This document shows, one piece after another, positions 17,902 through 44,512 of a stretch of DNA of 64,000 bases. Each line of letters opens with the position of its first letter. Position 1 is the stretch's first letter. The notes under the pieces are model-generated. The model was given only the letters and a program-made list of their open reading frames with translations, ran no database searches and was not told the origin of the DNA. Position numbers and translations under genes: made by a program. Where the stretch lies: positions 3,430 through 67,429 of the forward strand of contig JAGWWI010000001.1 of the NCBI GenBank assembly GCA_018970465.1. The letters run 5' to 3'. The DNA comes from Patescibacteria group bacterium. GTDB taxonomy: Bacteria; Patescibacteriota; Minisyncoccia; Phycocordibacterales; Phycocordibacteraceae.

Positions 17902-18149
17902 ACATGACCATGCCGCTCAAAAACCTTTCCGGAGATCGCGCGCGCTGGCGCAAGGTATCCGAGCTCGCGCCGGGCATGCTACTTGCCGTCGCCGCTGACG
18001 AGGTCCTCGCGCGCGCGACGGACGGCGTTGAGGACGCCGTGCTCTGGGACGACATCGTCTCGATCGCGTCGGTCGGGCGCGAGGAGGTGTTCGACATTGA
18101 GGTCGCCGGCACGCGCAACTTCGTCGGCAACGGCATCTACGCCCACAAC
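17898..18149 (+). other. Intein C-terminal splicing segment (blocks F and G), within the CDS.
   Basis: Block F VFDIEVAGTRNF, block G NGIYAHN, and a +1 Thr nucleophile. Confidence 0.7.
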
Positions 18150-21816: not shown

Positions 21817-21839
21817 GGCCGTTTGTGACTAGAGTATAT

Positions 21840-24044: not shown

Positions 24045-26867
24045 ATGACGCTCAAGCAATCGCACGCTCCCGAAGGCTACAAGCAGCTGCTCGCATACCA
24101 GAAGGCGGAGCGGCTGCAGGAGGCGTGCGCGGCGTTCACGTCCCGTTTCTCCCATTTTTCCCATTCGCCCCATTTCCGCACCCTGATGGCGCTCGCGGAT
24201 CAGATGGACCGCTCCGCCCGCTCGGTGAAGCAGAACATCGTGGAGGGGTGGAAGAGGAATTCGACGAAGGAATACTACGACTTCCTCGGATTCTCGATCG
24301 GCGCGAACGCGGAGCTGCAGGAGGATTGCGACGACATCATCAAGGGCCGGTATGAAATGGGAGGAAAAGGGTTGAAAAGGGAAGAATGGGAGGAAGGGGA
24401 GAAATGGGATATCGAAAGGGTAGAAAAGCTGCCCTTTTACCCCCTTGATTCCCATTTGCCCCTTTTGATCCAGCTCCGGCTGCGCTGCAAAGAATTGAAT
24501 TTCCTGCTCGACAAACTGCAGAAATCTCTCGCCGAGAAGATGCGCGAGGATCACACCCTTTCCGGCGCCGATCGGTTCAACGCGGCTCGCCGCGCGCAAG
24601 CGGAAGAGGATAAGTGGTTTGCAAAAAGTTTGGAGGAGCAAGGGCTCACGCGGCTCTCCAACGGGCAGGTCGTAACAAAGGGAGAAAAGGGTAACAAAGG
24701 GGAGAAAGGAAGCGTCCGCCTTTCCCTTTTTCTCCTATTTTCCCCCTTCCTCCTTTTTTCCTTTTTGCTGCTTCCCGCGCCCGCAGAGGCCGCGCTCACC
24801 CGCCCGCCCAACAACCTCGGCCTCGTCGGCTACTGGCCTTTCGACGAAGGCAGCGGCTCGACTGCGTACGACCGAAGCGGCTTCGGCAACAACGGGACGC
24901 TCGTGAATTCGCCCGCGTGGACGGTGGGGAAGCTGGGCGGGGCACTGAGCTTCAATGGGACGAATCAATACACCACGACGGGAACCACGAGTTTCCCCAC
25001 AGGTTCGTCCGCGCGATCCGTCTTCGCTTGGATTTATGTAGCGGGTTCTACGGGCAACGAGCAAGACGTGTTCTCGTACGGAAACGGCGGAACCACCGTT
25101 CAAGCTTCCAATTTCGGCATGCAAGCTTCGGGGCTCAAGCTCTTTTTTTCGTCTTGGGGATCGGGAAGCGCAACTTTTAACAGCAGTCTTTCCGTGACTA
25201 CTGGCACGTGGCATTTCGTCGGGTATACCCTCACGAGCTCCGGCACCGCCACGCTCTATTTGGATGGAACCTCCGCTCAAGCTACGGGCATGAGCGTTGG
25301 TACGGTCATACCGGCGGTATCGGACGCATCCGTCATAGGATCTGGGCCGAATGGCCAGGAATCTGGCAGATACTTCGACGGTAAGATAGACGACGTCCGC
25401 ATCTACAACCGTGCGCTCTCCGCCGCAGACGTGGCCCGCCTCTACCAGCTCGGCACCGCGGTCGCGGGGCCAACGAAGATCACGAGCCCCACCACCTTCC
25501 TCACCAACGGCCTCGTCGGCTACTGGACTTTCGACGGCAAGAATATGGTCAACAACGTCGCCGACAGCTCCGGCAACGGCAATAACGGCTCGCTCGTCGG
25601 CTTCACCTCGACCACGACCGCCGAGACGCTCGGCAAGATCGGCCAGGCGCTGAATTTTAATGGGACGAATCAGTATGTGCTCGTGCCTGACGCACCAAGT
25701 ATCCGTCTCTCGAACAAGTTCAGCATTTCTTTTTGGTTCAAGACAGCGAACCTTGCTCAAACCAATACCTATATCATGTCGCGCAACAACTCCACGGGCG
25801 GTACTCAAAGTTCCATTATTTTTGGATTCGTGCCGAGTACCATTGAATTCTACGCCTCAGGCTTTAGTGGCTCGGATCCCCGGACCGGTTCTCAAATCAG
25901 CATCTCCGATACCAGATGGCATCAGGTGACCTACACCTACGATGGAACGACGTGGAGTGGCTATCGTGACGGTCAACAGATATTTTCCACCAGCCGCACA
26001 TTTTCGCTCAGTACCGCTTCGCTTGATGGGTGGTACATCGGCTCGGCCAATACATTTGCAAATTTTATCAAGGCGTCACTCGACGACGTCCGCATCTACA
26101 ACCGCGCGCTCTCGGCGAGCGAGGTGCAGGAGCTCTACAACGCCACCGGCGGCGCGCCCACCATTACGCCCGCGGCCGTCGCGGCTGCGGGCCCCGCGCC
26201 CGGGAACCTCGTCGGCTACTGGACATTCAACAACAAGGACATGAACTGGCAGACCGGCATCGCGCTCGACAAGAGCGGCCAAGGCAACAACGGCACGCTC
26301 ATCAACATGAGCACGACGACTTCGCCGGTGGAAGGCAAGGTGGGGCAGGCGCTCAAGTTCAACGGGACGAGTCAGTATGTCAAAGTTTCGAATGGCACGA
26401 TAGTGAAAACGCTTCCCAACTCGTCAATCTCAGCGTGGATAAAAGTCGCGGGAACAGTCGGATCGACCGCTCAAACTATTTACAGTGAAAATGAGCCCCT
26501 GGGAGTCGATTACGGTCTTCTTGTTGAAGGCAGCGGCAACAACGGTTGCGGCGCCAGTACCGCGGGCAGGGCTTCTTTTTATATGGCCAACGGTTCTGAC
26601 CACAACGCCTGCACGACGACGCGTGTCGACGACGGGAAATGGCATTATTTGGTTGCGACGTACTCTGGTGGTTCTGCGATGAACATATACCTCGACGGAG
26701 TATTGAGCGGCTCTGGCACGGGTAGTGCAGCTGCGAGTGCTGCGGCCTCCTACGTCGGCAGGTCCGGGCAGGGAGTCTATTTCAACGGCACCATCGACGA
26801 CGTCCGCATCTACAACACCGCGCTCACGGCCGCGCAGGTCTTGCAGCTCTACAACGCGACGAAGTGA
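24045..26867 (+). CDS. Fusion ORF: an N-terminal four-helix-bundle (TIGR02436/Avd-family) domain, a low-complexity linker and TM, then a LamG/ConA-like surface protein with about 4 LamG domains. It may instead be two genes, with the LamG part starting at an internal ATG near 24538.
   Basis: Residues 1-about 150 read LAYQKAERLQEACAAFTSRF...RSARSVKQNIVEGWKRNSTKEYYDFLGFSIGANAELQEDCDD...LIQLRLRCKELNFLLDKL, a four-helix-bundle pattern. Then comes a TM LFLLFSPFLLFSFLLLPAPAEA|ALTRPPNNLGLVGYW and repeated LamG units ending ...IDDVRIYNRALSA.EV. A 5-codon uORF (ATG 24031 ... TGA) overlaps the start as ATGA. Confidence 0.75.
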   Translation: MTLKQSHAPEGYKQLLAYQKAERLQEACAAFTSRFSHFSHSPHFRTLMALADQMDRSARSVKQNIVEGWKRNSTKEYYDFLGFSIGANAELQEDCDDIIKGRYEMGGKGLKREEWEEGEKWDIERVEKLPFYPLDSHLPLLIQLRLRCKELNFLLDKLQKSLAEKMREDHTLSGADRFNAARRAQAEEDKWFAKSLEEQGLTRLSNGQVVTKGEKGNKGEKGSVRLSLFLLFSPFLLFSFLLLPAPAEAALTRPPNNLGLVGYWPFDEGSGSTAYDRSGFGNNGTLVNSPAWTVGKLGGALSFNGTNQYTTTGTTSFPTGSSARSVFAWIYVAGSTGNEQDVFSYGNGGTTVQASNFGMQASGLKLFFSSWGSGSATFNSSLSVTTGTWHFVGYTLTSSGTATLYLDGTSAQATGMSVGTVIPAVSDASVIGSGPNGQESGRYFDGKIDDVRIYNRALSAADVARLYQLGTAVAGPTKITSPTTFLTNGLVGYWTFDGKNMVNNVADSSGNGNNGSLVGFTSTTTAETLGKIGQALNFNGTNQYVLVPDAPSIRLSNKFSISFWFKTANLAQTNTYIMSRNNSTGGTQSSIIFGFVPSTIEFYASGFSGSDPRTGSQISISDTRWHQVTYTYDGTTWSGYRDGQQIFSTSRTFSLSTASLDGWYIGSANTFANFIKASLDDVRIYNRALSASEVQELYNATGGAPTITPAAVAAAGPAPGNLVGYWTFNNKDMNWQTGIALDKSGQGNNGTLINMSTTTSPVEGKVGQALKFNGTSQYVKVSNGTIVKTLPNSSISAWIKVAGTVGSTAQTIYSENEPLGVDYGLLVEGSGNNGCGASTAGRASFYMANGSDHNACTTTRVDDGKWHYLVATYSGGSAMNIYLDGVLSGSGTGSAAASAAASYVGRSGQGVYFNGTIDDVRIYNTALTAAQVLQLYNATK

Positions 26868-27948: not shown

Positions 27949-28434
27949 CTAGAACTTTGCGAGGCGGCGGGCGTGGCGCGGGAGGCCCGAGAAGGGGGTC
28001 GCGACGAAGATGCGGACGGCCTCGAGCGCTTCTGCATCGGTGAGGAAGCGCGTGCCGAGGGAGAGGATGTTCGCGTCGTTGTGCGCCCGCGCGAGGCGGA
28101 CGAGGTCGTAGCCGTCACCTCCTGCGGTAGTGCCCTCGATCTCGATCGCTCCCGTCGCGCTCCGGGGGCCATAGAAGACGGCGGCGCGCGCGCCTTTGAC
28201 GCGGTTCGCCGCCATCGCCTCGCCCTCGCCCGAGCCGCCGATCGCGACGCCGAGCGCGCCCGGCTCCGCGGCGACGCGCTCGGCGAGCGGGGTGATGAAG
28301 TCCGGATAATCGTCCGCGGGGTCAAGCGCCGTCGCGCCGAGGTCGAGCGCTTCGCGCCCCTCGGCCGCGAGCGCGTCGAGGAGGGAACGCTTCAAGTCGA
28401 AGCCCGCGTGGTCGCTCGCCAAATAGAGGCGCAT
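27949..28434 (-). CDS. rpiB: Ribose-5-phosphate isomerase B (RpiB/LacAB family).
   Basis: MRLYLASDHAGFDLKRSLLDAL...GVAIGGSGEGEAMAANRVKGARAA...ANILSLGTRF matches the conserved RpiB blocks, including the Cys-less LacAB-type active region. Confidence 0.88.
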   Translation of the reverse strand: MRLYLASDHAGFDLKRSLLDALAAEGREALDLGATALDPADDYPDFITPLAERVAAEPGALGVAIGGSGEGEAMAANRVKGARAAVFYGPRSATGAIEIEGTTAGGDGYDLVRLARAHNDANILSLGTRFLTDAEALEAVRIFVATPFSGLPRHARRLAKF

Positions 28435-28435
28435 G

Positions 28436-28675
28436 CTAACGCGGGTGGGCTGCCGTCGAGCTCGCCTCGGCCGACCCGGGCGCCTTCGGGGTCGGCGCGG
28501 GCGACGCGGCGGCAGCGCCGATAACCCCGGCAGGGAAGAAGAGCTTCACGACCGGCCCGGTCGCGAGGATAAGCAGGAGAATGAGGATGATAAGCACGGC
28601 GCCGAAGGTTGCGCGCAGGCTCCGCAGCTCGCGCTCGACCGCGTTCAATTTCTTCAAGACAGGATCCGAATCCAT
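28436..28675 (-). CDS. Small hypothetical membrane protein (79 aa), directly upstream of rpiB.
   Basis: N-terminal amphipathic segment plus one TM helix. Its stop lies 1 nt from the rpiB start. Confidence 0.45.
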   Translation of the reverse strand: MDSDPVLKKLNAVERELRSLRATFGAVLIILILLLILATGPVVKLFFPAGVIGAAAASPAPTPKAPGSAEASSTAAHPR

Positions 28676-28724
28676 TGCTGCCAGTATACCAAGGCCGATA
28701 CGGGTGCGCGGCCGTTTCTCACAG

Positions 28725-29006
28725 CTACGAAGCAGGCGGCGCCCAGCCGGGCGGCGCGCCGGGCGGCGGCGTCACGTGCCCGGTAGGGAGCTTCGCGCTC
28801 CCCGCGAGGGCCGGGATGAGGAGGTAGAGCGCGATCGCACCCGCGACAAGCGCGACGCCGAGGAGCACGTAGCTCGCCTGGCGCTCGTCGGCAATCGCGC
28901 CGCCCGAGAGTTCTACGAGGAGCGCGGCGAAGGAGCGGCGCTCCTCAGCGGCGGCCGCCGCGGGAAGCGTGTCCTGCGAATCGAAGCTGATCTGCTCTTG
29001 ATCCAT
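28725..29006 (-). CDS. Pilin-associated small single-pass membrane protein, family member 1.
   Basis: The product MDQEQISFDSQD...AIADERQASYVLLGVALVAGAIALYLLIP is paralogous to 30592..30873 and 36988..37236, which share an acidic N-terminus, a KDERQA-type motif and one TM. It lies 11 nt downstream of the pilin 1 stop. Confidence 0.55.
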   Translation of the reverse strand: MDQEQISFDSQDTLPAAAAAEERRSFAALLVELSGGAIADERQASYVLLGVALVAGAIALYLLIPALAGSAKLPTGHVTPPPGAPPGWAPPAS

Positions 29007-29017
29007 ATTCGGAAAGA

Positions 29018-29509
29018 TTAATTGCTGAGCCAATACCAATTCGGGCCGCCGTTCCCGCACCCTGCTGAAGAGGGGTTCCCCTGCGCCGCGGGCGGATTAT
29101 TCTCGAGGTTGACCGCGAGCACGTAGTGCTGGCCGCCCGAGAGCTGGCAGTACTCGTAAATATGGCAATTCGGCGTCGAGCCGCAGTTGCCGAGGTCGAT
29201 GTTCTGCGGATCGACCGGCACCTGCGAGATGTAGGTCGAGGCGAGGCCGCCCGTCCAGCACGCGCCCCAGCTGCTCCAGGAGCCCGCCTGGCCGCAGAAC
29301 TGCGGATATGTGTTGTGGTCGCTGTAGTAGAGCTCGAGCGCGGTCTGGATCGATTGCAGGTCGCTCTCGCGCCGGGCGTCGCGGCTCTTCGAGCGCGCGG
29401 TGTTCAAGGAGGCGAGCACGATCGAAGACAGGAGCCCGATGATCGCGATCACGACCAAGAGCTCGATGAGCGTGAAGCCTCGATTATGCTGCGGCAGCCG
29501 CAAGGACAT
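29018..29509 (-). CDS. Type IV pilin-like protein (prepilin-type N-terminal cleavage/methylation domain, GspG/PulG-like), paralog 1.
   Basis: Leader MSLRLPQHNRG|FTLIELLVVIAIIGLLSSIVLASLNTAR..., followed by a Cys-rich C-terminal domain. Its leader overlaps the last codons of gap. Confidence 0.85.
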   Translation of the reverse strand: MSLRLPQHNRGFTLIELLVVIAIIGLLSSIVLASLNTARSKSRDARRESDLQSIQTALELYYSDHNTYPQFCGQAGSWSSWGACWTGGLASTYISQVPVDPQNIDLGNCGSTPNCHIYEYCQLSGGQHYVLAVNLENNPPAAQGNPSSAGCGNGGPNWYWLSN

Positions 29510-30497
29510 GGCGCACGAGGGATTCGGTGTAGCCCATCTCGTTGTCGTACCAGGCGAGGACCTTGACGAGGTTGCCGCCGACGACGCGCGTCATCCCGAG
29601 GTCGGCGATCGAGGCGGTCGCTTCGCCGACGATGTCGGAGGAGACGAGCTCTTCGTCGGAGGCGGCGAAGATGCCCTCCCAGCGCGCCTCCCTGGCCGCG
29701 TCGCGGAGAAAGCCGTTCACCTCCTCGGCAGAGGTGTCGCGCTTCGCGATGAAGGTGATGTCCGCGATCGACCCCGCCGGGACGGGGACGCGGAGCGATA
29801 TGCCGTCGAATTTATCCACGAGCTCGGGATACGCCTTGGTGACCGCGATCGCCGCGCCGGTCGAGGTCGGGACGATGTTCGCGGCGCCCGCGCGGCCCTC
29901 CTTCATATCCTTCTTCGATGGGCCGTCGACGATCGACTGCGAGGCGGTGTAGGCGTGGGTCGTCGAGAGGATGGCCTTCTCGATGCCGAGCTTCTCGTTC
30001 AAGATCGCGATCACGGGAGAGGCGGCGTTCGTGGTGCAGGAGGCGTTCGAGGTGACCGGGCAGGCGGCGAAGCGGTCTTCGTTCACGCCCATGAGGACGG
30101 TCGCGCCGGCGACGCCCTCGTCGCCCTTAGCAGGCGCGCTGATGACGACGCGCCGCGCGCCCGCCGTCACGTGTGCGCCTGCAGCCGCGAACTCGGTGAA
30201 GAAGCCGGTCGATTCGACGACGACGTCGACCGCGAGCTCCTTCCAGGGAAGCGCAGCCGGATCCTTCTCGCTACAGAAGCGCACGACCTGATCGCCCATC
30301 CGCAGATTGCCGCCCTCGATCGCGACCGGGAAGGGCGGGCGCTTGTAGACGGTGTCGTGCGCGAGGAGGTACGCGAGGTTCTCGAGGGAGCCGAGGTCGT
30401 TGACTGCCACGATCTCGACCCCGCGCCCCCACGACCGGCGCGCGAACGCTCTGCCAATCCGCCCGAACCCGTTTATCGCTACGCGTATGTCAGCCAT
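29484..30497 (-). CDS. gap: Glyceraldehyde-3-phosphate dehydrogenase, type I.
   Basis: NAD-binding motif INGFGRIGR, active-site ASCTTNA, and WYDNEMGY at the C-terminus. The start is an internal ATG (MADIRVAINGFGRIGR) of track ORF 29484..30614. Confidence 0.92.
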   Translation of the reverse strand: MADIRVAINGFGRIGRAFARRSWGRGVEIVAVNDLGSLENLAYLLAHDTVYKRPPFPVAIEGGNLRMGDQVVRFCSEKDPAALPWKELAVDVVVESTGFFTEFAAAGAHVTAGARRVVISAPAKGDEGVAGATVLMGVNEDRFAACPVTSNASCTTNAASPVIAILNEKLGIEKAILSTTHAYTASQSIVDGPSKKDMKEGRAGAANIVPTSTGAAIAVTKAYPELVDKFDGISLRVPVPAGSIADITFIAKRDTSAEEVNGFLRDAAREARWEGIFAASDEELVSSDIVGEATASIADLGMTRVVGGNLVKVLAWYDNEMGYTESLVRHVLAAAAA

Positions 30498-30591
30498 ATG
30501 CGCCCATGGTAGCACTGCCGCGAGGCGGTAATCCACACCCGCGAGGGGTGCCTCGGCGGGCGGCCCGGCCCCGATGCTATGCTTACCCTCG

Positions 30592-30873
30592 ATGGATGAA
30601 GGGCGGCAGCTCACGATAGATGAACAAGGGGATGCCTACGCTCGGCCAATGCCGGATACCGCGCCCCGGGGCATCACGGGCCTCGTAATCCGGTGGGGCC
30701 TCGCCAAAGACGCGCGGAGCGCCGGGTACGTACTCCTCGGGACAGCGGTCGGGGTGGCCGTGCTCGCGTTCGTCATGCCGATGGTGATCGGCGGAGGCGG
30801 GCGGAGCGCGGGCGTCCCGCAGTCGGTCATCGATGCGAAGACGCCGTCGACGGGTACCGCGCCCTCCCTCTAG
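30592..30873 (+). CDS. Pilin-associated small single-pass membrane protein, family member 2.
   Basis: The product MDEGRQLTIDEQGDAYARPMPDTAPRGITGLVIRWGLAKDARSAGYVLLGTAVGVAVLAFVMP has its stop 2 nt before the pilin 2 ATG. The alternative start at 30574 would overlap the divergent gap region. Confidence 0.55.
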   Translation: MDEGRQLTIDEQGDAYARPMPDTAPRGITGLVIRWGLAKDARSAGYVLLGTAVGVAVLAFVMPMVIGGGGRSAGVPQSVIDAKTPSTGTAPSL

Positions 30874-30875
30874 CC

Positions 30876-31385
30876 ATGCATCGCTCGCGCGGCTTCACCC
30901 TCATCGAGCTCCTGGTGGTCATCGCCATCATCGGGCTCTTGTCGAGCATCGTGCTCGCCTCGTTGAACACGGCACGGCAGAAAGGTTTCGACGCCCAACG
31001 AGTATCGAACATGCGCGCGATACAAACGGCGCTCGAGCTTTACTACAACGATCACGGTCAGTATCCGCCTGGCAACGGTTCTAATTACGGCTGGGCGAGT
31101 CAATGCCCCGCGTGGGGAGGCGTGACGGCGAGCAACGTCATCCCCGGGCTCACGCCGAGTTATATGGCCTCCTTCCCCACCGACCCGCAGATGAATACGA
31201 GTGCCAGTACCTGCTGCTACCTCTATATCGCCGGCAACGGGGACCAGGATTATAAGCTTCTCCTCCACAACTGCCCAACCTCCTACGCTTGCTATGGCAC
31301 TGGGGAGGCGACGAGCGGTTTCTATGATCCTGTTCGGCCTACCTGGGCCTGCCAAATATCGACTCCTGGCGCGCAGGGTTGGTAA
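30876..31385 (+). CDS. Type IV pilin-like protein, paralog 2.
   Basis: MHRSRG|FTLIELLVVIAIIGLLSSIVLASLNTARQKGFDAQRVSNMRAIQTALELYYNDHGQYP..., with a Cys-rich C-terminus. The N-terminal DNA is about 90% identical to pilin 3. Confidence 0.85.
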   Translation: MHRSRGFTLIELLVVIAIIGLLSSIVLASLNTARQKGFDAQRVSNMRAIQTALELYYNDHGQYPPGNGSNYGWASQCPAWGGVTASNVIPGLTPSYMASFPTDPQMNTSASTCCYLYIAGNGDQDYKLLLHNCPTSYACYGTGEATSGFYDPVRPTWACQISTPGAQGW

Positions 31386-31407
31386 GGTGCGACGCTATAC
31401 TGCGTCC

Positions 31408-33033
31408 ATGAGCGCAATCATTCCCGCTATACTGCCGCGGACGCGCGAGGAGCTTGCGGCGGCGCTTCGGAAGCTTGCGCCGATTGCGGGCGTCACGGTC
31501 GTGCAGATCGACGCGGTCGACGGGCGCTTCGTCGCATCGGCCTCCTGGCCGTATGCGGAGCCCGCGCGTCTCGGAGCAGCGGATCTGGCACGCGAGCTGC
31601 AGGACGTGCTCGCGCCCTATGCAGGGCGCTTTGTAATCGACGCGGACCTCATGGTCGCCGACCAGATCGAGGCGGCGGAGGCGTGGCTTGCCGCGGGCGC
31701 CTCGCGGGTGACGCTCCACATCGAGGCGCTCGGCGAGCCGCTCCGCGCGCTCGCCGCTCTCGAGCACCGGCTTGGCCGCCGGCAGGGCGGGAAGCCCTAC
31801 GAGCTCGGGCTCGCCGCCGGGCTCGGCACCGACCTCGCGCGCCTCGCGTCGCTCATCCCGCACGCGCGGCCCGACTACGTGCAGTTGATGGGCATCCGGA
31901 CCATCGGCCGGCAGCACGAGCCCTTTGACGCGCGCGTCCTCGCGCGCGTCAGGGCGCTCCGCGCGCGCTATCCGCGGCTCGTGATCCAGGTTGACGGCGG
32001 CGTCTCGGCGGAGACGACGCGCGCCTTGATCGACGCGGGCGCCGACCGGCTCGTCGCCGGGCACGCGATCCTCGGCGCCGCCGACTCGGCGGCCGCGTTC
32101 GCCTCGCTCGCTACGATCGCGGCGGGCGACGCGCGGTATGATGAAGCCATGCCGTTGACCGATGGAGATGTGCGAGCGATCGCCGAGAAGGCGAACGAGA
32201 TCCGCGAGACGATCGTCGAGATGCTCGTCGCCGCGGGCTCGGGGCACACTGCGGGCCCGCTTGGCTTGGCGGACATCTTCGCCGCCTTCTACTTCCACAT
32301 CCTCCGCCACGACCCGAAGAACCCGGAGTGGGAGGGGCGCGACCGCCTCATCCTCTCGAACGGCCACACTTGCCCCGTCCGCTACGCGGCGATGGCGCAC
32401 GCGGGGTACTTCCCGGCCGAGGAGTGTCTTACGCTGCGGAAGTTCGGCTCGCGCCTCCAGGGCCACCCCGAGCGCGTGCGGCTCCCCGGGCTCGAGACGA
32501 CCTCCGGCCCCTTAGGCGAAGGGCTCGCGCAGGCCGCGGGTATGGCCCTCGCCTTGCGGATGCAGGGGGAGAGAAACAGAGTGTATTGCGTCGTCTCCGA
32601 CGGCGAGCAGGACGAGGGGAATACCTGGGAGGCAGCCCTCTTCGCCGGGAAATATAAGCTCGGGAACCTCACCGCGATCATGGATCGCAATAACATACAA
32701 ATAGATGGGGTGACGGAAGACGTCATGCCGCTAGAGCCCATCAAGGATAAGTACGAGGCCTTCGGCTGGCACGTCCTCGAATGCTCGGGGCACGACATCC
32801 GCGCGTTCGTCGCGGCGGTCGAGGAGGCGAAGGCGATCTACGAGAAGCCGACGATGATCATCGCTCACACGATCCCCGGCCGCGGCGTCCCCGAGATCGA
32901 GTTCGACTACCGCTGGCATGGCGTCCCGCCTGGCGCAGGTCCCGAGGACGTCTGGAAGAAGGGCGAGCAGGGCGCCGCGATGCTGCGCGAACTCCGCACG
33001 CTCGGAGGCCGTCTCCCGCACGAATATGCTTAG
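31408..33033 (+). CDS. Fusion protein: a ribulose-phosphate 3-epimerase-like TIM barrel (N-terminal, about 235 aa) followed by the transketolase N-terminal (TPP-binding PP) section.
   Basis: The N-terminal half parallels Rpe blocks: IIPAILP..., VQIDAVDGRFV, DADLMV, AGASRVTLHIEA, VQLMGI, IQVDGGV and AGADRLVAGHAILG. The C-terminal half reads GSGHTAGPLGLADIFAAFYFHILRHDPKNPEWEGRDRLILSNGH...GPLGEGL...VSDGEQDEGNTWEA...NLTAIMDRNNIQIDG, a transketolase N-terminal pattern. The ORF is continuous with no stop. Confidence 0.75.
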   Translation: MSAIIPAILPRTREELAAALRKLAPIAGVTVVQIDAVDGRFVASASWPYAEPARLGAADLARELQDVLAPYAGRFVIDADLMVADQIEAAEAWLAAGASRVTLHIEALGEPLRALAALEHRLGRRQGGKPYELGLAAGLGTDLARLASLIPHARPDYVQLMGIRTIGRQHEPFDARVLARVRALRARYPRLVIQVDGGVSAETTRALIDAGADRLVAGHAILGAADSAAAFASLATIAAGDARYDEAMPLTDGDVRAIAEKANEIRETIVEMLVAAGSGHTAGPLGLADIFAAFYFHILRHDPKNPEWEGRDRLILSNGHTCPVRYAAMAHAGYFPAEECLTLRKFGSRLQGHPERVRLPGLETTSGPLGEGLAQAAGMALALRMQGERNRVYCVVSDGEQDEGNTWEAALFAGKYKLGNLTAIMDRNNIQIDGVTEDVMPLEPIKDKYEAFGWHVLECSGHDIRAFVAAVEEAKAIYEKPTMIIAHTIPGRGVPEIEFDYRWHGVPPGAGPEDVWKKGEQGAAMLRELRTLGGRLPHEYA

Positions 33034-34036
33034 CCCCGCTGCGAAGCTCTCGGCGAAGGTCTGCGCCGACGATATCGAAGAGAAGCCGACGCGCGACGGC
33101 TTCGGCGCGGGCGTCGTCTTCGCGGGGAAGAAGGACGAGCGCATCGTCGTCCTCACCGCCGACCTCGCGGAATCGACGCGGGCGGAGTGGTTCGAGAAGG
33201 AATTTCCCGAGCGCTTTGTAGAAATGGGCGTCGCCGAGCAGGCGATGGCCACCGTCGCGAGCGGCATGGCTGCCGTCGGGAAGATCCCGTTCATTACGAG
33301 CTACGCGGCCTTCAACCCGGGCCGCAACTACGAGCAGATCCGCACGACGATCGCCTTGAACGAGGCGAATGTGAAAGTCTGCGGCATGCACGCAGGCGTC
33401 TCGGTCGGCCCTGACGGCGCGACGCATCAGATGCTCGAGGATATCGGGATGATGCGCATGCTCCCCAACATGATCGTCCTCAATCCGGGCGACGCGATCG
33501 AAGCACAGAAGGCCGTCATCGCCGCGGCTAAGCACGCGGGGCCCGTCTATCTGCGCTTCGGCCGCGCGGCGACACCGGTCTTCACTACCGAGGCGACGCC
33601 GTTTACGCTTGGCAAAGCGCTTACGCTCTTCGATCCGGAGGCAGAGAGCAGCGCGCCCGGCACGAAGCCCCGCGTCGCGATCCTCTCGACCGGCGCCTTG
33701 TCCTACGAAGCGCTCCGGGCGGCGAAGGCGCTCGCTGCGGAGGGTATCGCCGCTTCGGTGACCCACTTCGCCACGGTGAAGCCGCTCGATATCGAAGCGC
33801 TCGAGCGCACGGCCCGCCGCGCGGGCGCAGTCGTTACCGTCGAGGAGCACCAGGCCGCGGGCGGATTCGGCTCGGCGGTCGCGGAGCTTCTTGGCGAGCG
33901 CATGCTGCTGCCGATCGCGCGCATCGGGGTGCGCGACCGCTTCGGCGAGTCGGGCGAGCCCGCGGAACTTCTCGCGGCGTTCGGGCTCGACGCCGCTGCG
34001 ATCGCGGCAGCGGCGAAGCGCCTCGTGCTAGGATAG
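33026..34036 (+). CDS. Transketolase C-terminal section (Pyr plus C-terminal domains; split transketolase subunit B).
   Basis: The sequence EFPERFVEMGVAEQAMATVASGMA...FITSYAAFNP...NVKVCGMHAGVSVGPDGATHQMLEDIGMMRMLPNM is the transketolase pyrimidine-binding pattern. It overlaps the upstream gene by 8 nt. Confidence 0.88.
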   Translation: MLSPAAKLSAKVCADDIEEKPTRDGFGAGVVFAGKKDERIVVLTADLAESTRAEWFEKEFPERFVEMGVAEQAMATVASGMAAVGKIPFITSYAAFNPGRNYEQIRTTIALNEANVKVCGMHAGVSVGPDGATHQMLEDIGMMRMLPNMIVLNPGDAIEAQKAVIAAAKHAGPVYLRFGRAATPVFTTEATPFTLGKALTLFDPEAESSAPGTKPRVAILSTGALSYEALRAAKALAAEGIAASVTHFATVKPLDIEALERTARRAGAVVTVEEHQAAGGFGSAVAELLGERMLLPIARIGVRDRFGESGEPAELLAAFGLDAAAIAAAAKRLVLG

Positions 34037-34040
34037 CCGC

Positions 34041-34214
34041 ATGCGTTTAGCGACCTTCAAGCTGAACTCCTACTTCGCCGTGCTCATCATCACGCTCGTC
34101 GGCTCGGGCGCGGCGTTCGTCATCGTGCATGTCGGCACGACCGACGTAAGCAAGGCCGCGCTCGGCAACGAGGCGCAGTTCGCGAAGCTGCAGCAGTCGA
34201 TCCTAAGCAAGTAG
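34041..34214 (+). CDS. Small hypothetical membrane protein (57 aa; below the ORF-track cutoff).
   Basis: ATG with AGGA 8 nt upstream. The GC3-rich codon usage matches the genome. The product is MRLATFKLNSYFAVLIITLVGSGAAFVIVHVGTTDVSKAALGNEAQFAKLQQSILSK. Confidence 0.4.
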   Translation: MRLATFKLNSYFAVLIITLVGSGAAFVIVHVGTTDVSKAALGNEAQFAKLQQSILSK

Positions 34215-35198
34215 TTAGAGCGGCCGCGCGGCGTAGCTCGCAGGAGCCTCGGCGAGGAGCTTCTCGAGGGCGTCGCGCGCGAGGAGGCCTTTCTGCGCGC
34301 CGATCTCCTGCACGACCGCCATCGAGTTCACCGGCCCCCAGAGGAGGGCCTCGGCGAGGGGCTTCCCGAGCGCCAAGGCCGCGACGATGGTCGAGGTGCA
34401 GGCGTCGCCCGCGCCTGTGCGCTCATACGGGGGCTTGGGGTCCGGATACATCGGGACGAACCACGCGCCCGTGCTGTCGGCGGCATAGGCGCCCTTCGGG
34501 CCGTCGGTGACGATCGCGATCTCGGGGCCTAACGCGCGAAGCTTCTCGAGGAGCGTCGCGGGTTCGCTCTCAGCGGGGAGGGCGAGGATGCGCTCGGCCT
34601 CCTCCTTGTTGCAGGCGACGAACGCAGCGGCCCGGTAGAGGGGCGCGAGCTTCTCGACCCCGAGCGCCATCTCGAAGGTGCTCGGCTGGAAAGCGAGCTT
34701 GGTCTCCGGGTGCTTCGCGCACCAGTCGGCGAGCGCGAGGTGGAACTCGAGCGAGCGCCCGGCAGAGGAGAGGTAGATCCATTTGGGCGCGGGAAGGTCC
34801 TCGGGAATCGCGTACGCGAAGTCCTCGTGCCGCACGAGGATAGTGCGCTCCGCCTCGAACCAGAGCACGTAGTCGTGGTTGGTCGCGACGCCCGCATTGA
34901 CGCGCACGAAGCGCGTGTCGACGCGTTCCCGTTCGAAGGTCGCGATGATCTCTTTGCCGTAGTCGTCGCCGCCCACGTTCGAGAGGAAGCCGGTTGCAAG
35001 GCCGAGGCGCGCGGCGGCGACTGCCGCGTTCGCTGCGTTCCCGACGCCCGCGACGCGCACCGAGAACTCGTAGGGGATCTTGTCGCCCCAGTTCATGCTG
35101 ATCGTGCAGTTCTCGTCGTTTAGGTCGCAGTTGACGCGCGCGTCCTTCAAGCGGATGAACTCATCCACCGTCGTGTCGCCTATGGCCAAGAAATCCAT
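34215..35198 (-). CDS. PfkB-family carbohydrate/nucleoside kinase (ribokinase-like).
   Basis: N-terminal Gly-rich motif VAGVGNAANAAV and C-terminal GAGDACTSTIV (the GAGD anion-hole motif). The start is an internal ATG (MDFLAIGDTTVD) of track ORF 34215..35339. Confidence 0.82.
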   Translation of the reverse strand: MDFLAIGDTTVDEFIRLKDARVNCDLNDENCTISMNWGDKIPYEFSVRVAGVGNAANAAVAAARLGLATGFLSNVGGDDYGKEIIATFERERVDTRFVRVNAGVATNHDYVLWFEAERTILVRHEDFAYAIPEDLPAPKWIYLSSAGRSLEFHLALADWCAKHPETKLAFQPSTFEMALGVEKLAPLYRAAAFVACNKEEAERILALPAESEPATLLEKLRALGPEIAIVTDGPKGAYAADSTGAWFVPMYPDPKPPYERTGAGDACTSTIVAALALGKPLAEALLWGPVNSMAVVQEIGAQKGLLARDALEKLLAEAPASYAARPL

Positions 35199-35221
35199 AC
35201 GGTCGAGTGTATCATAGGTAT

Positions 35222-36223
35222 ATGACCGACCTCTTCGCCGCCGCGCGCGCACTCGTCGAGCCCAGCAAGGGCCTCCTCGCCGCCGATGAGAGCACGCCCA
35301 CCGCAGCGAAGCGCCTCGCCGCGTACGGCATCGCCTCATCGCCCGAGCTCCGCCGGCAGTTCCGCGATCTCTTCCTCTCGATGGAGGGCGTCGAGCGCTA
35401 CCTCTCGGGCGTCATCCTCTACGAGGAGACATTCGCGCAGAAGGGGAGCGACGGGAAGCTCTTCCCCGACTCGCTCGAGGCGCGCGGGATCGCGCCGGGG
35501 ATCAAGGTCGACGAAGGGACCGAGCCCTTCCCGGGGAGCGCGGAGGAGCTCATCACCAAGGGCCTCGTCGGCCTCCCCGAGCGGCTCGCGGCTTTCAAGA
35601 AGGGCGGCGCGGTCTTCACCAAGTGGCGAGCCGTGATCCGGATCGAGGGCGACGCCCTGCCTACTGCCGCCGCCGTCCTCGAGAACGCGAAGCGCCTCGC
35701 GAGCTACGCCAAGGAGGCGCAGGTCGCGGGCCTCGTGCCCATCGTCGAGCCCGAGGTCCTCTTGGCGGGGAAGCACTCGCGCGCGCGGTCACAAGCGGTC
35801 ATCCAAGAGACGCTCGCGACGCTCTTCTCGGCGCTCGCGGCGCAAGGGGTCGACCTTGGCGGCCTCCTCCTCAAGACCGCGATGGCCCGTTCGGGCGACG
35901 CCTCGGCGCACAAAGACGCGTCCGAGGAGGTCGCGGCGGCGACTCTCGAAGCGCTCGTTGCGAGTGTTCCGCGGGAGGTGGCGGGCATCGTCTTCCTCTC
36001 GGGCGGCGAGAGCCCCGACGAAGCGACCGCTAACCTCGCGGCGATCACGCGCGAGGCGCGCCGCGTCGAGGCGCCCTGGCCCCTGACCTTCTCCTACGCG
36101 CGCGCCCTGCAGGAGGAGGCCTTGGCGCTCTGGAAGGGCAAGGCCGAGAACGTCGAGGCGGCCCGCGCCGCCTTCCGCGCCCGGCTCGAGAAGGTCCAGG
36201 CCGCGCTTGTCTCCTCCCCATAA
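35222..36223 (+). CDS. Fructose-bisphosphate aldolase, class I.
   Basis: KGLLAADESTPT, Schiff-base region GIKVDEG, and FTKWRAV...LVPIVEPEVLLAGKH: canonical class I FBA motifs. Confidence 0.9.
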   Translation: MTDLFAAARALVEPSKGLLAADESTPTAAKRLAAYGIASSPELRRQFRDLFLSMEGVERYLSGVILYEETFAQKGSDGKLFPDSLEARGIAPGIKVDEGTEPFPGSAEELITKGLVGLPERLAAFKKGGAVFTKWRAVIRIEGDALPTAAAVLENAKRLASYAKEAQVAGLVPIVEPEVLLAGKHSRARSQAVIQETLATLFSALAAQGVDLGGLLLKTAMARSGDASAHKDASEEVAAATLEALVASVPREVAGIVFLSGGESPDEATANLAAITREARRVEAPWPLTFSYARALQEEALALWKGKAENVEAARAAFRARLEKVQAALVSSP

Positions 36224-36234
36224 CCCTGCAAGAT

Positions 36235-36931
36235 GTAGGACATAGTATGTCCTACAATGGAGAGGTCATGGAACTCTGGCACGTGATATATCGGGGCGTT
36301 GACGGCCGAGATATCTTCAAGGACGACCAAGATCGCGCGCGGTTCGTACATGACCTCTACGAATTCAACGACACGGCTCCAGCCGGTGTTTATGTCGGAC
36401 ATACTATGTCCAAAGCTCGGGAGACGATTGTCGAAGTGCATGGGTGGAAACTCATGCCCAACCACGTGCATTTACTTCTTTCGGAATCTCGTGATGACGG
36501 ATTCTCGCTGTTTCTTAAGAAAATGCGCGGATATGCCCGGTACTACAACGAACGCCATAGCCGTCGCGGGATCTTATTCGACAAGATGAAGAAGGTGCAC
36601 ATCGAACGCGAAGCGCATTTCCTGTACATACTCCATTACATCCACCTGAACGGGCTCGACGATCTGCCAGGCGCAGAGCGGTGGCGGGAGCGTGACAAAG
36701 GGGCGATATCCGATGTTGGTGCGGCGCTCGCGCATCTCGGGCAGGATAAATGGAGCAGCTTCCGCGATTATTGCGGCATCGCGAATTTCCCCTCGATACT
36801 CACCACACGCTTGTTCGAAGATCGTCCGAGAGAATACGAGCGCGATCTTGAAGACTTTCTGCAAAATCGGACTGACCCTGGGCTGGCGGCTTACGATCTC
36901 GAATAAACGTAGGACATAGTATGTCCTACGT
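36235..36931 (+). mobile_element. Minimal IS200/IS605- or RAYT-like element: one HUH Y1 transposase gene bracketed by two identical hairpin palindromes GTAGGACATAGTATGTCCTAC.
   Basis: Left palindrome at 36235..36255; right palindrome at 36909..36929 (extended to ACGT...ACGT at 36907..36931). The tnpA ATG lies inside the left hairpin. The element sits in an intergenic slot between fba and a pilin pair. Confidence 0.65.
36247..36906 (+). CDS. tnpA: HUH single-tyrosine (Y1) transposase, REP-associated tyrosine transposase (TnpA_REP) / IS200-like.
   Basis: ELWHVIYRGVDGRDIFKDDQDRARFV, an HUH motif LMPNHVHLLL, and a catalytic-Tyr region RGYARYYNERHSRRGILF. Confidence 0.75.
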   Translation: MSYNGEVMELWHVIYRGVDGRDIFKDDQDRARFVHDLYEFNDTAPAGVYVGHTMSKARETIVEVHGWKLMPNHVHLLLSESRDDGFSLFLKKMRGYARYYNERHSRRGILFDKMKKVHIEREAHFLYILHYIHLNGLDDLPGAERWRERDKGAISDVGAALAHLGQDKWSSFRDYCGIANFPSILTTRLFEDRPREYERDLEDFLQNRTDPGLAAYDLE

Positions 36932-36987
36932 TCCAGGGCTGTGGATAGCGTGGGTGCGCGCGGCGCGGGAGTGTACGCTTAGCGCAT

Positions 36988-37236
36988 ATGGCGGACATGC
37001 AGTTCGAGGAGCCCTCCTACGGCGCGCCGGTCGTCGATGCGGGGCCGAAGGGCCTTGCGGGGCTCCTTATCAGGTGGGGCGTCGCGAAGGACGAGCGTCA
37101 AGCGCAAGTCGCGCTCCTCGTCATCTTGGTCGTTGCGCTCATCGGGGCGGCTAGCCTCTTCCTCTTCGGCGGGGCGGCTGGCTCGTCGCGGCCGCCGGTC
37201 CCGAATATCGACGGCACGCCGAGGACCGGCCCATGA
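36988..37236 (+). CDS. Pilin-associated small single-pass membrane protein, family member 3.
   Basis: The product MADMQFEEPSYGAPVVDAGPKGLAGLLIRWGVAKDERQAQVALLVILVVALIGAASLFLF overlaps the pilin 3 start as ATGA. Confidence 0.55.
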   Translation: MADMQFEEPSYGAPVVDAGPKGLAGLLIRWGVAKDERQAQVALLVILVVALIGAASLFLFGGAAGSSRPPVPNIDGTPRTGP

Positions 37237-37691
37237 ATTCGCCTGCTCGCGGCTTCACCTTGATCGAGCTCCTGGTCGTCATCGCGATCATCGGGCTCCT
37301 CTCCGCGATCGTGCTCGCCTCCTTGAACACCGCGCGCACGCGCGGGCAGGACGCGGCGCGCGAGTCGGACGTAAAGTCCCTCGAGACCGCGATGGAGCTC
37401 TACTACAACGACAACGGCGGCTACCCGACCTCGAACGGCAGCGGAAACGGCGACGTGCTCCTCTCTGACGCGACTTTGGTCGGGAAGCTGGTCCCCAAGT
37501 ACATCGCAAGCATGCCAGCTCTTCTCATCGCTGACGGCGACCACTATTACGGCGCGGGCGCGACCTCGGGCGTCGAGACGACCGGCTATGACATGTACAT
37601 TTACGTCGGTGCATCAAACTCCTACTGCCGCGCCGGCACGCTCCCCACTTGGACGGGTGACTGGGGCACTCCGACGGTCTGCAACTTCTAG
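37233..37691 (+). CDS. Type IV pilin-like protein, paralog 3.
   Basis: The product MNSPARG|FTLIELLVVIAIIGLLSAIVLASLNTARTRGQDAARESDVKSLETAMELYYNDNGGYP... has a C-terminal CRAG...TVCNF Cys pair. Confidence 0.85.
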   Translation: MNSPARGFTLIELLVVIAIIGLLSAIVLASLNTARTRGQDAARESDVKSLETAMELYYNDNGGYPTSNGSGNGDVLLSDATLVGKLVPKYIASMPALLIADGDHYYGAGATSGVETTGYDMYIYVGASNSYCRAGTLPTWTGDWGTPTVCNF

Positions 37692-37729
37692 TTGCCTCCC
37701 GGCCGCGGGCGGGGTATAGTGCGCCCGTT

Positions 37730-38371
37730 ATGCCGAATCTCCCGGTAGCAGCGCGCGATAGCGCCCACACGTCCCCGAAGGCGCTCCGCCGCGCGGGGAA
37801 GGTCCCGGCCGTCGTCTACGGCGCCACACAGGCGTCGACCCCGATCGCCGTCGACCTCGCCGCCTTCGCCAAAGTCCTCGCCGAGGCGGGGGAGTCGTCG
37901 ATCGTGACGCTCGAGGGCCTCGGCGCCCCGGTGCCGACCTTGATCCACGAGGTCGACCTCGACCCGGTGACGCGCACGCCCCGGCACGTCGACTTCTATG
38001 CGGTGACGCGCGGGCAGAAGGTGGAGGTCGCGATCCCGCTCGAGTTCGTCGGGGAGTCCCCGGCGGTCAAGGCCGGCGCGAACCTGGTCAAGGTCATGCA
38101 CGAGCTCACCGTCGAGGCCGACCCGATGGCGCTGCCGCACGAGCTCACCTTCGACGTTTCCGCGCTCGCGGAAGTGGGCCAGCAAGTGCGCGCGGGCGAC
38201 GTGCTCCTCCCCGCGGGCGTCACGCTCGCGGTCGACGCGGACGAGATCGTCGCCCTTATCCAGGAGGTCGCCGAAGAGCCCGAGGAGGAGGCGGCGCCCG
38301 TCGACCTCTCGACGATCGAGGTGGAGCAGAAGGGCAAGGAGGAGCCCGCGGAGGGCGAAGCGGCGGAGTAA
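37730..38371 (+). CDS. rplY: 50S ribosomal protein L25 (Ctc/general-stress form with an acidic C-terminal extension).
   Basis: RAGKVPAVVYG...HVDFYAV and an acidic tail EEPEEEAAPVD...EGEAAE, typical of long-form L25/Ctc. Confidence 0.85.
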   Translation: MPNLPVAARDSAHTSPKALRRAGKVPAVVYGATQASTPIAVDLAAFAKVLAEAGESSIVTLEGLGAPVPTLIHEVDLDPVTRTPRHVDFYAVTRGQKVEVAIPLEFVGESPAVKAGANLVKVMHELTVEADPMALPHELTFDVSALAEVGQQVRAGDVLLPAGVTLAVDADEIVALIQEVAEEPEEEAAPVDLSTIEVEQKGKEEPAEGEAAE

Positions 38372-38375
38372 GGGC

Positions 38376-39740
38376 GTGCTCGGGCGTGGTACACTCTACG
38401 CCGTGAACCGGCGTTTTTTTGTTGCAGCGTTCGCTCTGGCTGTTCTCTCTGGCGCGGGCCTCGCGGCGCTCCACGCGCCCGCCACGCGCGCCCAGGAGCT
38501 CACGGACGCCGAACGCGCGCAGCTGCAGGCTGAGTATAATCAGCTGCAGCAGGAAATCGCCGCGCAGCAGCAGATCATTGCCCAAACGCAGGGGCAGGAG
38601 CGCACGCTGAAGGGCGACGTGACCTCGCTCACCGCAGCGATCACCGCCGCGCAGAAGCAGATCGACGCCAAGAACATCCAGCTCCGGCAGCTCGCCTCGG
38701 AGATCGCGACGAAGACCGAGACGATCAGCAATCTCGAATCGCATATCGACGCGGGGAAAGAGTCGCTCGCCTCGATGCTCCGGCAGGAGGCGCAGCTCGA
38801 GGACGCCTCGCCGGTCGCGATCGCCTTCGGCGCCGAGAGCATCTCGGAGTTCTTCTCGGACGTGGACTCCTTCGCCTCGATCGAGAACGCCCTCCACGTC
38901 GTCTTCAACGACCTTGAGGCGAGCCAGGCGCAGGCCGCCAACGAGCGCGACGCCCTCGCCTCGACGCAGAACCAGGTCACGGACGCCAAGTACGCGGTGC
39001 AGGAAACCAAGGCGCAGATCGCGACCAATAAGACCGAGAAGCAGCAGCTCCTCGCCGCCGCCTCCGCGAGCGAGGCCGAGCAGCAGAAGGTCCTCGCGGC
39101 GAACCAGGCTAAGGCCGCCGCGATCCGCGCCGCGCTCTTCCCGCTCCGGGACGCGGCGGCGATCCCCTTCGGCACGGCGCTCCAGTACGCACAGGCGGCG
39201 CAGCGGGCGACCGGCGTCGACCCGGCTCTCGTCCTCGCCATCCTCACGCAGGAGTCGAATCTCGGCGCGAACGTGGGGCAGTGCTATCTCGCAAACGATC
39301 AGACCGGCGCGGGGGTAGGGAAGAATAGCGGCACCGCGTTCGCGAAGGTCATGAACCCGAATCGCGACGTGCCTATCTTCCTCGCGATGGCGAACGCGAT
39401 CGGTTTCGATCCGCACCACCAGGTCGTCTCCTGCCCGATCGCGGGCGCAGGCGGCTGGGGCGGCGCGATGGGCCCCGCGCAGTTCATCCCCTCGACCTGG
39501 AAGCTCTACATGGGCGTCTCGGCGAACCCTTGGGACCCGAGCGTCGCGATCCGCGCGATGTCGACCTACCTCGCCGACCTCGGCGCGGGCGCGGGCGGCT
39601 ACACGGCGCTCCACACCGCCGCGGCGAAGTACTACGCCGGCGGCGCCTGGGCCTCCGCCGGCCAGGCCTACGCCAACCAGGTGATGGCGAAGGTCTCCGC
39701 CATCCAGCAGAACATCACGTTCTTGGCGCAGAATTCTTAG
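38376..39740 (+). CDS. Secreted coiled-coil protein with a C-terminal lytic transglycosylase (SLT/MltB-like) domain.
   Basis: N-terminal TM, about 230 aa of Q/A/E-rich coiled coil, then LAILTQESNLG (catalytic Glu-Ser), GQCYL, and GAMGPAQFIPSTWKLY (the G..QF.PSTW motif). Confidence 0.7.
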   Translation: MLGRGTLYAVNRRFFVAAFALAVLSGAGLAALHAPATRAQELTDAERAQLQAEYNQLQQEIAAQQQIIAQTQGQERTLKGDVTSLTAAITAAQKQIDAKNIQLRQLASEIATKTETISNLESHIDAGKESLASMLRQEAQLEDASPVAIAFGAESISEFFSDVDSFASIENALHVVFNDLEASQAQAANERDALASTQNQVTDAKYAVQETKAQIATNKTEKQQLLAAASASEAEQQKVLAANQAKAAAIRAALFPLRDAAAIPFGTALQYAQAAQRATGVDPALVLAILTQESNLGANVGQCYLANDQTGAGVGKNSGTAFAKVMNPNRDVPIFLAMANAIGFDPHHQVVSCPIAGAGGWGGAMGPAQFIPSTWKLYMGVSANPWDPSVAIRAMSTYLADLGAGAGGYTALHTAAAKYYAGGAWASAGQAYANQVMAKVSAIQQNITFLAQNS

Positions 39741-43816: not shown

Positions 43817-44512
43817 ATGCATGCGGTGCGCGGCTGGATGCTCTTTGTGACAGCTTTCCTCTTTGCTGTGGTAGCTGCTTGCATCGTTCTGACGCTTTCT
43901 TTCGGGTGGATCGGGCGTTCGTCTGCGTCGATCGCCGCCACGTTGCCGCCGCAGCTTGTTGTGACGGGAACCGACCACTCCCGCGGAAGCGCGGCGGCAC
44001 CAGTAACGCTCATAGAATACGCCGATACGGAGTGCGAATTTTGTAAGCGGCTCGAGCCTGTGCTCGATACGCTGTATACTTGGTATGGCCCGACCGGGCA
44101 GGTGCGCTTCGTCTACCGCTATTTCCCGCTTGGCCTATGGAGCGACTCGACGCCGGAGGCGGAGGCGCTTGAGTGCGCTGCGCGTGCTGGAGGCGATACG
44201 GCCTTCTTCGCGTATCTCGACGCTCTTTTTACTGCGACCGCCTCGAATAACGGCCTCGATCTCGCGCGCCTGCCCTCATTGGCAAGCAGCGTTGGCCTAA
44301 ACGCCGGTGCCTTTGCTAAGTGCCAGGCTTCGGCAGGGGAGCTATCGCCGGCTATCGAACGGGACGTCGCTAGCGGCAAGGCGCTCGGCGTCTCCCAGGC
44401 CCCGGCACTCTTTATTGTTGCGGCGGGTGGGCACGTAACAAGGATTGTGGGGAGCAGGAGCTTGCCGGTCCTCGACTCGGTCATCAAGGCCGCGCTCGCT
44501 CCTGCGCCATGA
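43817..44512 (+). CDS. DsbA-family thiol:disulfide oxidoreductase, second copy.
   Basis: N-terminal TM, active-site CEFC in YADTECEFCKRL, and thioredoxin-fold spacing. Confidence 0.8.
   Translation: MHAVRGWMLFVTAFLFAVVAACIVLTLSFGWIGRSSASIAATLPPQLVVTGTDHSRGSAAAPVTLIEYADTECEFCKRLEPVLDTLYTWYGPTGQVRFVYRYFPLGLWSDSTPEAEALECAARAGGDTAFFAYLDALFTATASNNGLDLARLPSLASSVGLNAGAFAKCQASAGELSPAIERDVASGKALGVSQAPALFIVAAGGHVTRIVGSRSLPVLDSVIKAALAPAP

Follow-up and report, generated by a model that had tools for sequence, protein, structure and literature searches.

What is the role of the small genes that adjoin the pilin genes of Patescibacteria? The question is raised by a stretch of DNA from a Patescibacteria metagenome-assembled genome (MAG; NCBI GCA_028865925.1, locus tags KGI78_), referred to here as the window (64,000 nucleotides (nt), GC content ~65%), in which a six-frame motif scan finds three prepilin genes and three genes for small, single-pass membrane proteins (S1, S2, and S3), always adjoining one another. 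Our analysis places these small proteins in a family of bitopic membrane proteins of ~85 amino acids (aa) that is found throughout the Patescibacteria, or Candidate Phyla Radiation (CPR), and has so far gone unnamed. The reading we favor, to which we assign a probability of roughly 45%, is that members of this family are membrane proteins dedicated to pilins, serving as accessory, chaperone, or hand-over factors. All six open reading frames (ORFs) listed in an initial annotation of the window exist, and most of what that annotation said of them was borne out, with the exceptions described below.

The three small genes abut their pilins in different ways. S3 (82 aa; 36988..37236, plus strand) is nearest to the family consensus, and its TGA overlaps the ATG of pilin 3, stop and start sharing the sequence ATGA. 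S2 (93 aa; 30592..30873, plus strand) ends with a TAG located 2 nt before the ATG of pilin 2. Both lie upstream of, and on the same strand as, their pilins, while S1 (93 aa; 28725..29006, minus strand), the divergent member, is found downstream of pilin 1, with 11 nt between the pilin stop codon and its own ATG. These junctions had been read in the same way in the initial annotation, which described each pilin as paired with a small gene. The adjacency stands in all three cases, but pair 1 is reversed relative to the canonical small-then-pilin order. The codon bias of S1–S3 is gene-like, with a GC content at third codon positions (GC3) of 0.81–0.86 (0.81 in S1) compared to about 0.52 at second positions (GC2). 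The kinship proposed for the three proteins is confirmed by BLASTP (S2/S3, 2e-13; S1/S3, 7e-6; S1/S2, 3e-5) and by a family hidden Markov model (HMM) built from 105 members with the window sequences left out. In a search space of 948 window ORFs, this HMM matched S3 at 1e-26, S2 at 8e-22, and S1 at 6e-14, and it did not match two nearby small transmembrane (TM) ORFs (28436-28675 and 34041-34214); S1–S3 fit both the family profile and its length range of about 60-110 aa.

Two observations on individual small genes may be added. In the NCBI annotation, S2 (KGI78_00655) begins at an internal Met and is only 74 aa long. The family HMM alignment begins at S2 residue 10, which supports the start at 30592 and the 93-aa form in preference to the shorter product. 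The first of the unmatched TM ORFs (79 aa; 28436-28675, minus strand) lies in the interval from S1 to rpiB, 49 nt past the end of S1; it has a GC3 of 0.84, no Pfam match, and a layout of cytoplasmic helix, single TM segment, and Ala/Pro/Ser-rich tail that resembles the architecture of S1–S3. With a family HMM E-value of about 1, it was rejected as a fourth family member or a pilin.

The extent of the family was revealed by an exhaustive profile search of 1.84 billion cluster representatives that used no word index. At E<=1e-3, the profile of S1–S3 collected 579 of them, with lengths of about 60-144 aa throughout; the longer members apparently carry mis-called N-terminal extensions. Used as a single query against 5.8 billion proteins, S3 matched itself only, and a scan of genome contigs using S3 alone gave no match; a profile search of 5.8 billion proteins gave at least 21 matches, all of them unnamed. 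Wherever a source names the family it does so as "hypothetical protein," and the cluster look-up carries neither names nor taxonomy. Searches of Pfam and NCBIfam with S1–S3 and 108 members were unable to identify a meaningful match beyond scattered TM-driven noise, a PDB sequence search found no relative, and hhalign comparison with pilins aligned the TM segment only, at a probability of 3%. This agrees with the initial annotation, in which the small protein was not recognized as any known pilus-biogenesis component. The literature searched, on CPR protein families and Saccharibacteria pili, contains no description of a small protein encoded upstream of CPR pilins.

The association with pilins extends well beyond the window. 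Loci were gathered by pattern scans of GTDB genomes and JGI metagenomes, using the pattern G[LV]AKDE[RK][SGQ]A derived from a 14-sequence sub-alignment (7 + 12 loci recovered), and by exact look-ups of four family members; the narrow search pattern biases this sample towards canonical motifs. Removal of duplicates left 23 informative family genes outside the window, drawn from three Saccharibacteria MAGs, a Wolfebacteria MAG, the complete UBA2103 genome, and other Patescibacteria. A prepilin lies directly downstream in 19/23 of these, starting at -17 to +103 nt on the same strand (binomial P < 1e-18, taking pilins as ~5% of genes, as for 3 of ~66 in the window). The commonest junction is -4, i.e., the 4-nt ATGA overlap seen at S3, and overlaps or gaps of 0-5 nt are present in most loci. 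This arrangement places the small gene and the prepilin gene on a single mRNA, with translation that is probably coupled. Flanking genes differ from locus to locus, and include PGI/ROK (with pilB/pilC nearby), RpiB, aldolase, and an AI-2E transporter; the conserved unit is therefore the pair itself. The partnered pilins are short (152-197 aa) and possess a GspG-like alpha1 helix (RDAxR...ALELYY).

Two of the loci deserve separate description. One (L015) contains two tandem copies of the small-pilin pair. The two small paralogs show a single difference in their first ~45 residues and diverge in the distal TM and tail, and the two pilins differ in the head, a pattern that fits a common cytoplasmic partner combined with a pilin-specific outer part. 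In another (L006), one of the exceptions to the 19/23, an intact-looking family member is followed after 5 nt by a decayed prepilin, MARPTNKGFTLVETF. This pseudogenized partner (2998-3207 of that locus; MARPTNKGFTLVETFRTIATPR...) has lost its hydrophobic helix.

The partners of S1–S3 had been called type IV pilins in the initial annotation, and profile searches uphold the assignment. Pilin 1 (163 aa; 29018..29509, minus strand; leader MSLRLPQHNRG/FTLIE, where the slash marks the cleavage site), pilin 2 (169 aa; 30876..31385, plus strand; MHRSRG/FTLIE), and pilin 3 (152 aa; 37233..37691, plus strand; MNSPARG/FTLIE), the last followed by the gene for ribosomal protein L25, match PF07963 at 1.4e-9, 1.9e-9, and 3.4e-9 and TIGR02532 at 2e-9, 8.9e-9, and 1.7e-8, respectively. 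The corresponding scores are 36-37.5 bits (cutoff 21.2) and 34-37 bits (cutoff 16.3). All three proteins carry a class III signal peptide, with a short basic leader, a Gly at -1, and RG/FTLIELLVVIAIIGLLS, and share the cleavage-site signature G/FTLIELLVVIAIIG. No NCBIfam equivalog model (GspG, PilA, or ComGC) reaches its cutoff; the best such match, to TIGR01710 GspG, scores 47-53 bits where the cutoff is 88.85, and pilin 1 matches the GspG-like model at 9.8e-14, likewise under cutoff. We therefore classify them, from their sequences, as generic CPR type IV prepilins. The N-terminal 90 nt of pilins 2 and 3 had been described as near-identical, which is an overstatement: this pair is 82% identical (74/90), the closest pair is 1/3 (81/90), and the overall range is 82-90%. 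As the differences are mostly synonymous, recent gene conversion was rejected, and the similarity is best read as a conserved peptide encoded with GC-biased codons.

Promoter and terminator scans gave nothing informative, with no terminator-like site between pilin 1 and S1, and an Rfam scan of the window found only a tRNA, located elsewhere in it. As annotated, pilin 1 begins within the GAPDH gene (29484-30614), its first 26 nt (29484-29509, minus strand) coinciding with the 3' end of that gene, so that co-transcription of pilin 1 and S1 with gap is probable. Each of the three pilins also contains several cysteines, and a Thioredoxin_4/DsbA-like gene is present at 43817-44512, ~6 kb from pilin 3. 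Meheust et al. (PMC6744442) have connected pilin folding with a family of thiol-disulfide oxidoreductases that is enriched in CPR.

The anatomy of the small proteins is well defined in the family alignment. They open with the consensus M-[AS]-D-[VI]-Q-F-[DE]-E-E-x-x-Y, in which F6 is kept in 97% of members, followed by about 10 variable residues and then G-L-x-G-L-V-I-[KR]-W. An almost invariant juxtamembrane turn, G-L-A-K-D-E-[KR]-Q-A (G31 in 95%, A39 in 98%), comes next, and L43 is conserved in 89%. The 23-residue hydrophobic TM helix is succeeded by a G/S-rich stretch and an outer tail of roughly 20 residues, 19% of them Pro, which is the least conserved part of the protein, two of its prolines being kept in 90% and 88%. 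S3 carries both the N-terminal motif (MADMQFEE) and the turn (GVAKDERQA). In S2 an I replaces F6 (LTIDEQ) and the turn reads GLAKDARSA, and the motifs of S1 are the most degenerate of the three: it keeps the F (ISFDSQ), but its turn has decayed to GAIADERQA and the R-W-G is absent. The 15 residues flanking the TM contain on average 2.8 K+R on the N-terminal side and 0.96 on the C-terminal side; by the positive-inside rule, this concentration of basic residues indicates an N-in/C-out topology.

An AlphaFold2 model of S3 made from the family alignment (mean predicted local distance difference test, pLDDT, of 81) consists of coil at 1-22, a helix at 23-30, a second helix at 36-63, and a coil tail, with the turn falling at the invariant Gly between the helices. 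The helix at 23-30 would be a short interfacial helix. Across the juxtamembrane and TM regions conservation follows a 100-degree periodicity, which defines one conserved helix face, A39-L43-A47-A50-A54 in S3 numbering, forming a stripe of small residues (Ala/Gly). Such stripes are typical of tight helix-helix packing. Conservation thus extends to the cytoplasmic part, the inner interface, one face of the TM helix, and the outer part, and a pattern that takes in all four argues for a protein with partners rather than a mere translated spacer.

We infer the activity proposed here from gene order, translational coupling, topology, and the pattern of conservation. In this proposal, the small protein would be made together with the prepilin and inserted beside it. 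Its TM helix could pack via the small-residue stripe against the hydrophobic alpha1-N helix of the pilin, which would bring the G-L-A-K-D-E-x-x-A turn to the level of the pilin leader and Glu5 and allow the Pro-rich outer tail to touch the base of the pilin head. The N-terminal peptide may dock on a cytoplasmic part of the pilus machine or on the peptidase (PilM, PilB, PilC, or PilD). The net outcome would be that the membrane pool of that pilin is stabilized, held, or handed over for assembly. That the three copies in the window adjoin its only three pilins supports this reading. A more far-reaching form of it, which we consider possible but rather doubtful, is that the family is a hitherto unrecognized part of the core type IV pilus system throughout the Patescibacteria, an escort produced in stoichiometric amounts alongside each pilin. 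It would hold the prepilin by helix-helix packing and, via the N-terminal Phe-acidic peptide, deliver it to the cytoplasmic motor, platform, or peptidase, or control its access to them. Such an escort, if real, would represent a subunit-delivery step without a described counterpart in classical type IV pilus systems. Nothing was found in favor of the immunity factor that was also suggested at the outset.

A number of observations weigh against a pilin-dedicated accessory. Within the window, the pilin-then-small order of pair 1 is a rare arrangement in the family, and the relationships among the small proteins (S2-S3 closest) are not mirrored by those of the pilins (P1-P2 closest), a mirror-tree style comparison of three pairs that is without statistical power. 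The window was also found to contain no type IV pilus machinery genes, pilM and pilO included. Elsewhere, the L25 gene sits between the small gene and the pilin in one locus (L013), a motif-degenerate copy lies downstream of its pilin, as does S1, in another (L012), and a copy ending just past the TM has no pilin nearby in a third (L022). Pilins of similar type occur without a partner in CPR loci (L028, L013), indicating that pairing is frequent and not universal. The alpha1-N helix is nearly invariant across pilin paralogs, so TM-TM contact alone fails to explain why each pilin should have its own copy, and no domain fusion that would point to a partner was detected among the 579 representatives.

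Other explanations were considered. The tight junctions could reflect a coupling or targeting device, in which it is translation of the upstream ORF that matters and the peptide has little function of its own; the TM segment would bring the ribosome and its mRNA to the membrane, and the amount and place of pilin synthesis would be set by termination-reinitiation at ATGA. The overlaps and short gaps at most loci are consistent with this, as are the absence of a recognizable Shine-Dalgarno sequence ahead of pilin 2 in the window sequence and the location of the modules in highly expressed housekeeping clusters. An ORF of this kind would not require conservation of its residues, however, and distant CPR classes retain specific residues in the cytoplasmic and outer parts as well as along one face of the TM helix. 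Some pairs are moreover 55-103 nt apart or split by another gene, and family members also persist downstream of pilins, making such a device unlikely. Alternatively, the small protein could regulate or sense the pilin pool or the dynamics of the pilus, with the N-terminal peptide reporting the pilin level or modulating extension and retraction. That near-invariant peptide (M1, F6, acidic flanks) does resemble a short docking motif, and the TfpY-type proteins discussed below were first described as modulating retraction dynamics, with tfpY mutants suppressed by regulatory mutations (PMC11841053). Nevertheless, a protein of only ~85 aa that lacks any DNA-binding, kinase, or nucleotide-binding module makes an improbable regulator, and co-translation with an abundant structural subunit would not be expected of one.

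A further explanation supposes a general envelope or membrane protein unrelated to pili that merely shares the pilin operon, as the family has no homology to any pilus component, its modules lie amid genes of sugar-phosphate metabolism and ribosomal proteins rather than pilus machinery, and a few members have no adjacent pilin. This explanation sits poorly with pilin adjacency in 19/23 independent loci of differing surroundings, with tandem duplications in which the pair is copied whole (L015), and with three window copies that flank its only three pilins, and we regard it as distinctly unlikely. Finally, the small protein shares with prepilins a single N-terminal-proximal TM, an invariant Gly before it, and an adjacent gene, which raises the question of whether it is itself a cryptic prepilin-peptidase substrate, either a mini pilin-like protein or the precursor of an exported peptide. 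The 95% conserved G31 would then be at -1, with a Glu at +5 in 53% of members, and the gene adjoins true PilD substrates. In pilins, the hydrophobic stretch directly follows the cleavage site; here a polar K-D-E-K-Q follows the Gly, with conserved Lys and Asp at +3/+4, and the hydrophobic segment begins only ~10 residues later. The leader is long and acidic instead of short and basic, there is no globular head, and the tail that would be exported is the part under the least conservation. S1–S3 do not match PF07963, and no likeness of the family to prepilin profiles (PF07963, TIGR02532, hhalign) extends beyond the TM. We consider this last possibility highly improbable.

A comparison of the accessory protein we favor with known systems shows partial parallels and some significant disparities. 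By analogy of function, the closest counterparts appear to be the TfpY/TfpX/TfpZ/FimB proteins of Pseudomonadota, whose genes form a cassette with that of the major pilin and are co-regulated with it; they are reported to interact with the pilin and to promote assembly (PMC11841053). They have no recognizable catalytic domain and are reported not to enter the fiber; they are 235-245 aa in length and contain three TM helices and a beta-rich globular domain in the periplasm, and their genes lie downstream of pilA behind an attenuating terminator (PMC11841053). The small family is likewise a membrane protein encoded with the pilin and without a catalytic domain. In contrast, S1–S3 are 82-93 aa with a single TM, a coil tail, and no globular domain, and S2, S3, and 19/23 of the relatives are upstream of the pilin with overlapping or abutting codons. 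Membership in the TfpY/FimB family was accordingly rejected, as its defining features are lacking and there is no sequence relationship.

PilN (PF05137) is a bitopic protein of the alignment complex whose conserved cytoplasmic N-terminal peptide binds PilM; it possesses a periplasmic ferredoxin-like domain and is encoded with pilM/pilO. The small proteins share with it a short conserved cytoplasmic N-terminal peptide and a single TM helix, and differ in their tail of ~20 aa, their N-terminal motif, and their gene context. Pfam searches found no PF05137 match in S1–S3 or the 108 members. PilN and PilO are encoded separately in CPR genomes (PMC6744442; PMC11623550). The identification of the family as PilN was rejected on the lack of a profile match, the short tail, and the absence of pilM/pilO from the window. 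A looser analogy is offered by Geobacter sulfurreducens GSU1497 (Spc / PilA-C), a small protein encoded next to the short pilin PilA-N and reported to be required for pilin stability or to form a heterodimer with the pilin. GSU1497 is encoded downstream and complements a headless, truncated pilin, whereas the window pilins are full length (152-169 aa). The small family would thus be a CPR-wide pilin accessory in kind, but with a different fold, size, and gene order from the known examples and no homology to them.

By itself, a small hypothetical gene beside a pilin is not astonishing. Few functions are enriched across CPR, type IV pili being one of them, and cultivated Saccharibacteria depend on these pili to bind their hosts, to twitch, and to grow (PMC6744442; PMC11623550). 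A protein that is conserved, co-produced with the pilin, and so far unannotated would be a component hitherto missing from the CPR pilus machine, and the breadth of the family, its coupling to pilins, and the conservation of its residues make it a credible candidate. It would offer a small, concrete target for genetic work in the tractable Saccharibacteria, for attempts to express CPR pilins in other hosts, and for structural modeling of pilin complexes in the membrane. The family HMM combined with synteny provides a clean signature with which hundreds of "hypothetical proteins" could be annotated.

The small-pilin modules of the window are located in a gene cluster (27949-39740) that is conserved across several CPR lineages (loci L026, L028, L006, L012, L013, and L009). 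It contains genes for GAPDH, RpiB, Rpe/transketolase, a PfkB kinase, a class I aldolase, ribosomal protein L25, and a coiled-coil SLT-domain protein, and the modules occupy different slots of the cluster in different genomes. Between the aldolase gene and S3 lies a small transposase-like element (36235-36929) that is not present at this place in the relatives L009 and L013. Its 219-aa ORF (36247-36906) shows an HVHLLL / YIHLN pattern, by eye like that of RAYT/IS200-type tyrosine transposases, with no Pfam match at 1e-3. Identical 21-nt palindromes, GTAGGACATAGTATGTCCTAC, flank this ORF at 36235-36255 and 36909-36929, and an 81% copy is found at 36394-36414.

Several large proteins are encoded farther upstream in the window. 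A 1157-aa protein (12633-16106) carries a Peptidase_S74 (endosialidase chaperone) domain at its C terminus, and a 588-aa protein (17526-19292) has a Bact_surface_Ig-like domain and a sub-threshold intein-splicing match; both are probably large surface proteins. In a 940-aa ORF (24045-26867), a 23S_rRNA_IVP four-helix-bundle domain is in frame with an apparent signal peptide and three LamG (Laminin_G_3) repeats. This ORF probably represents two genes without a stop codon between them, and the preceding 738-aa ORF (21813-24029) likewise encodes a triple LamG protein.

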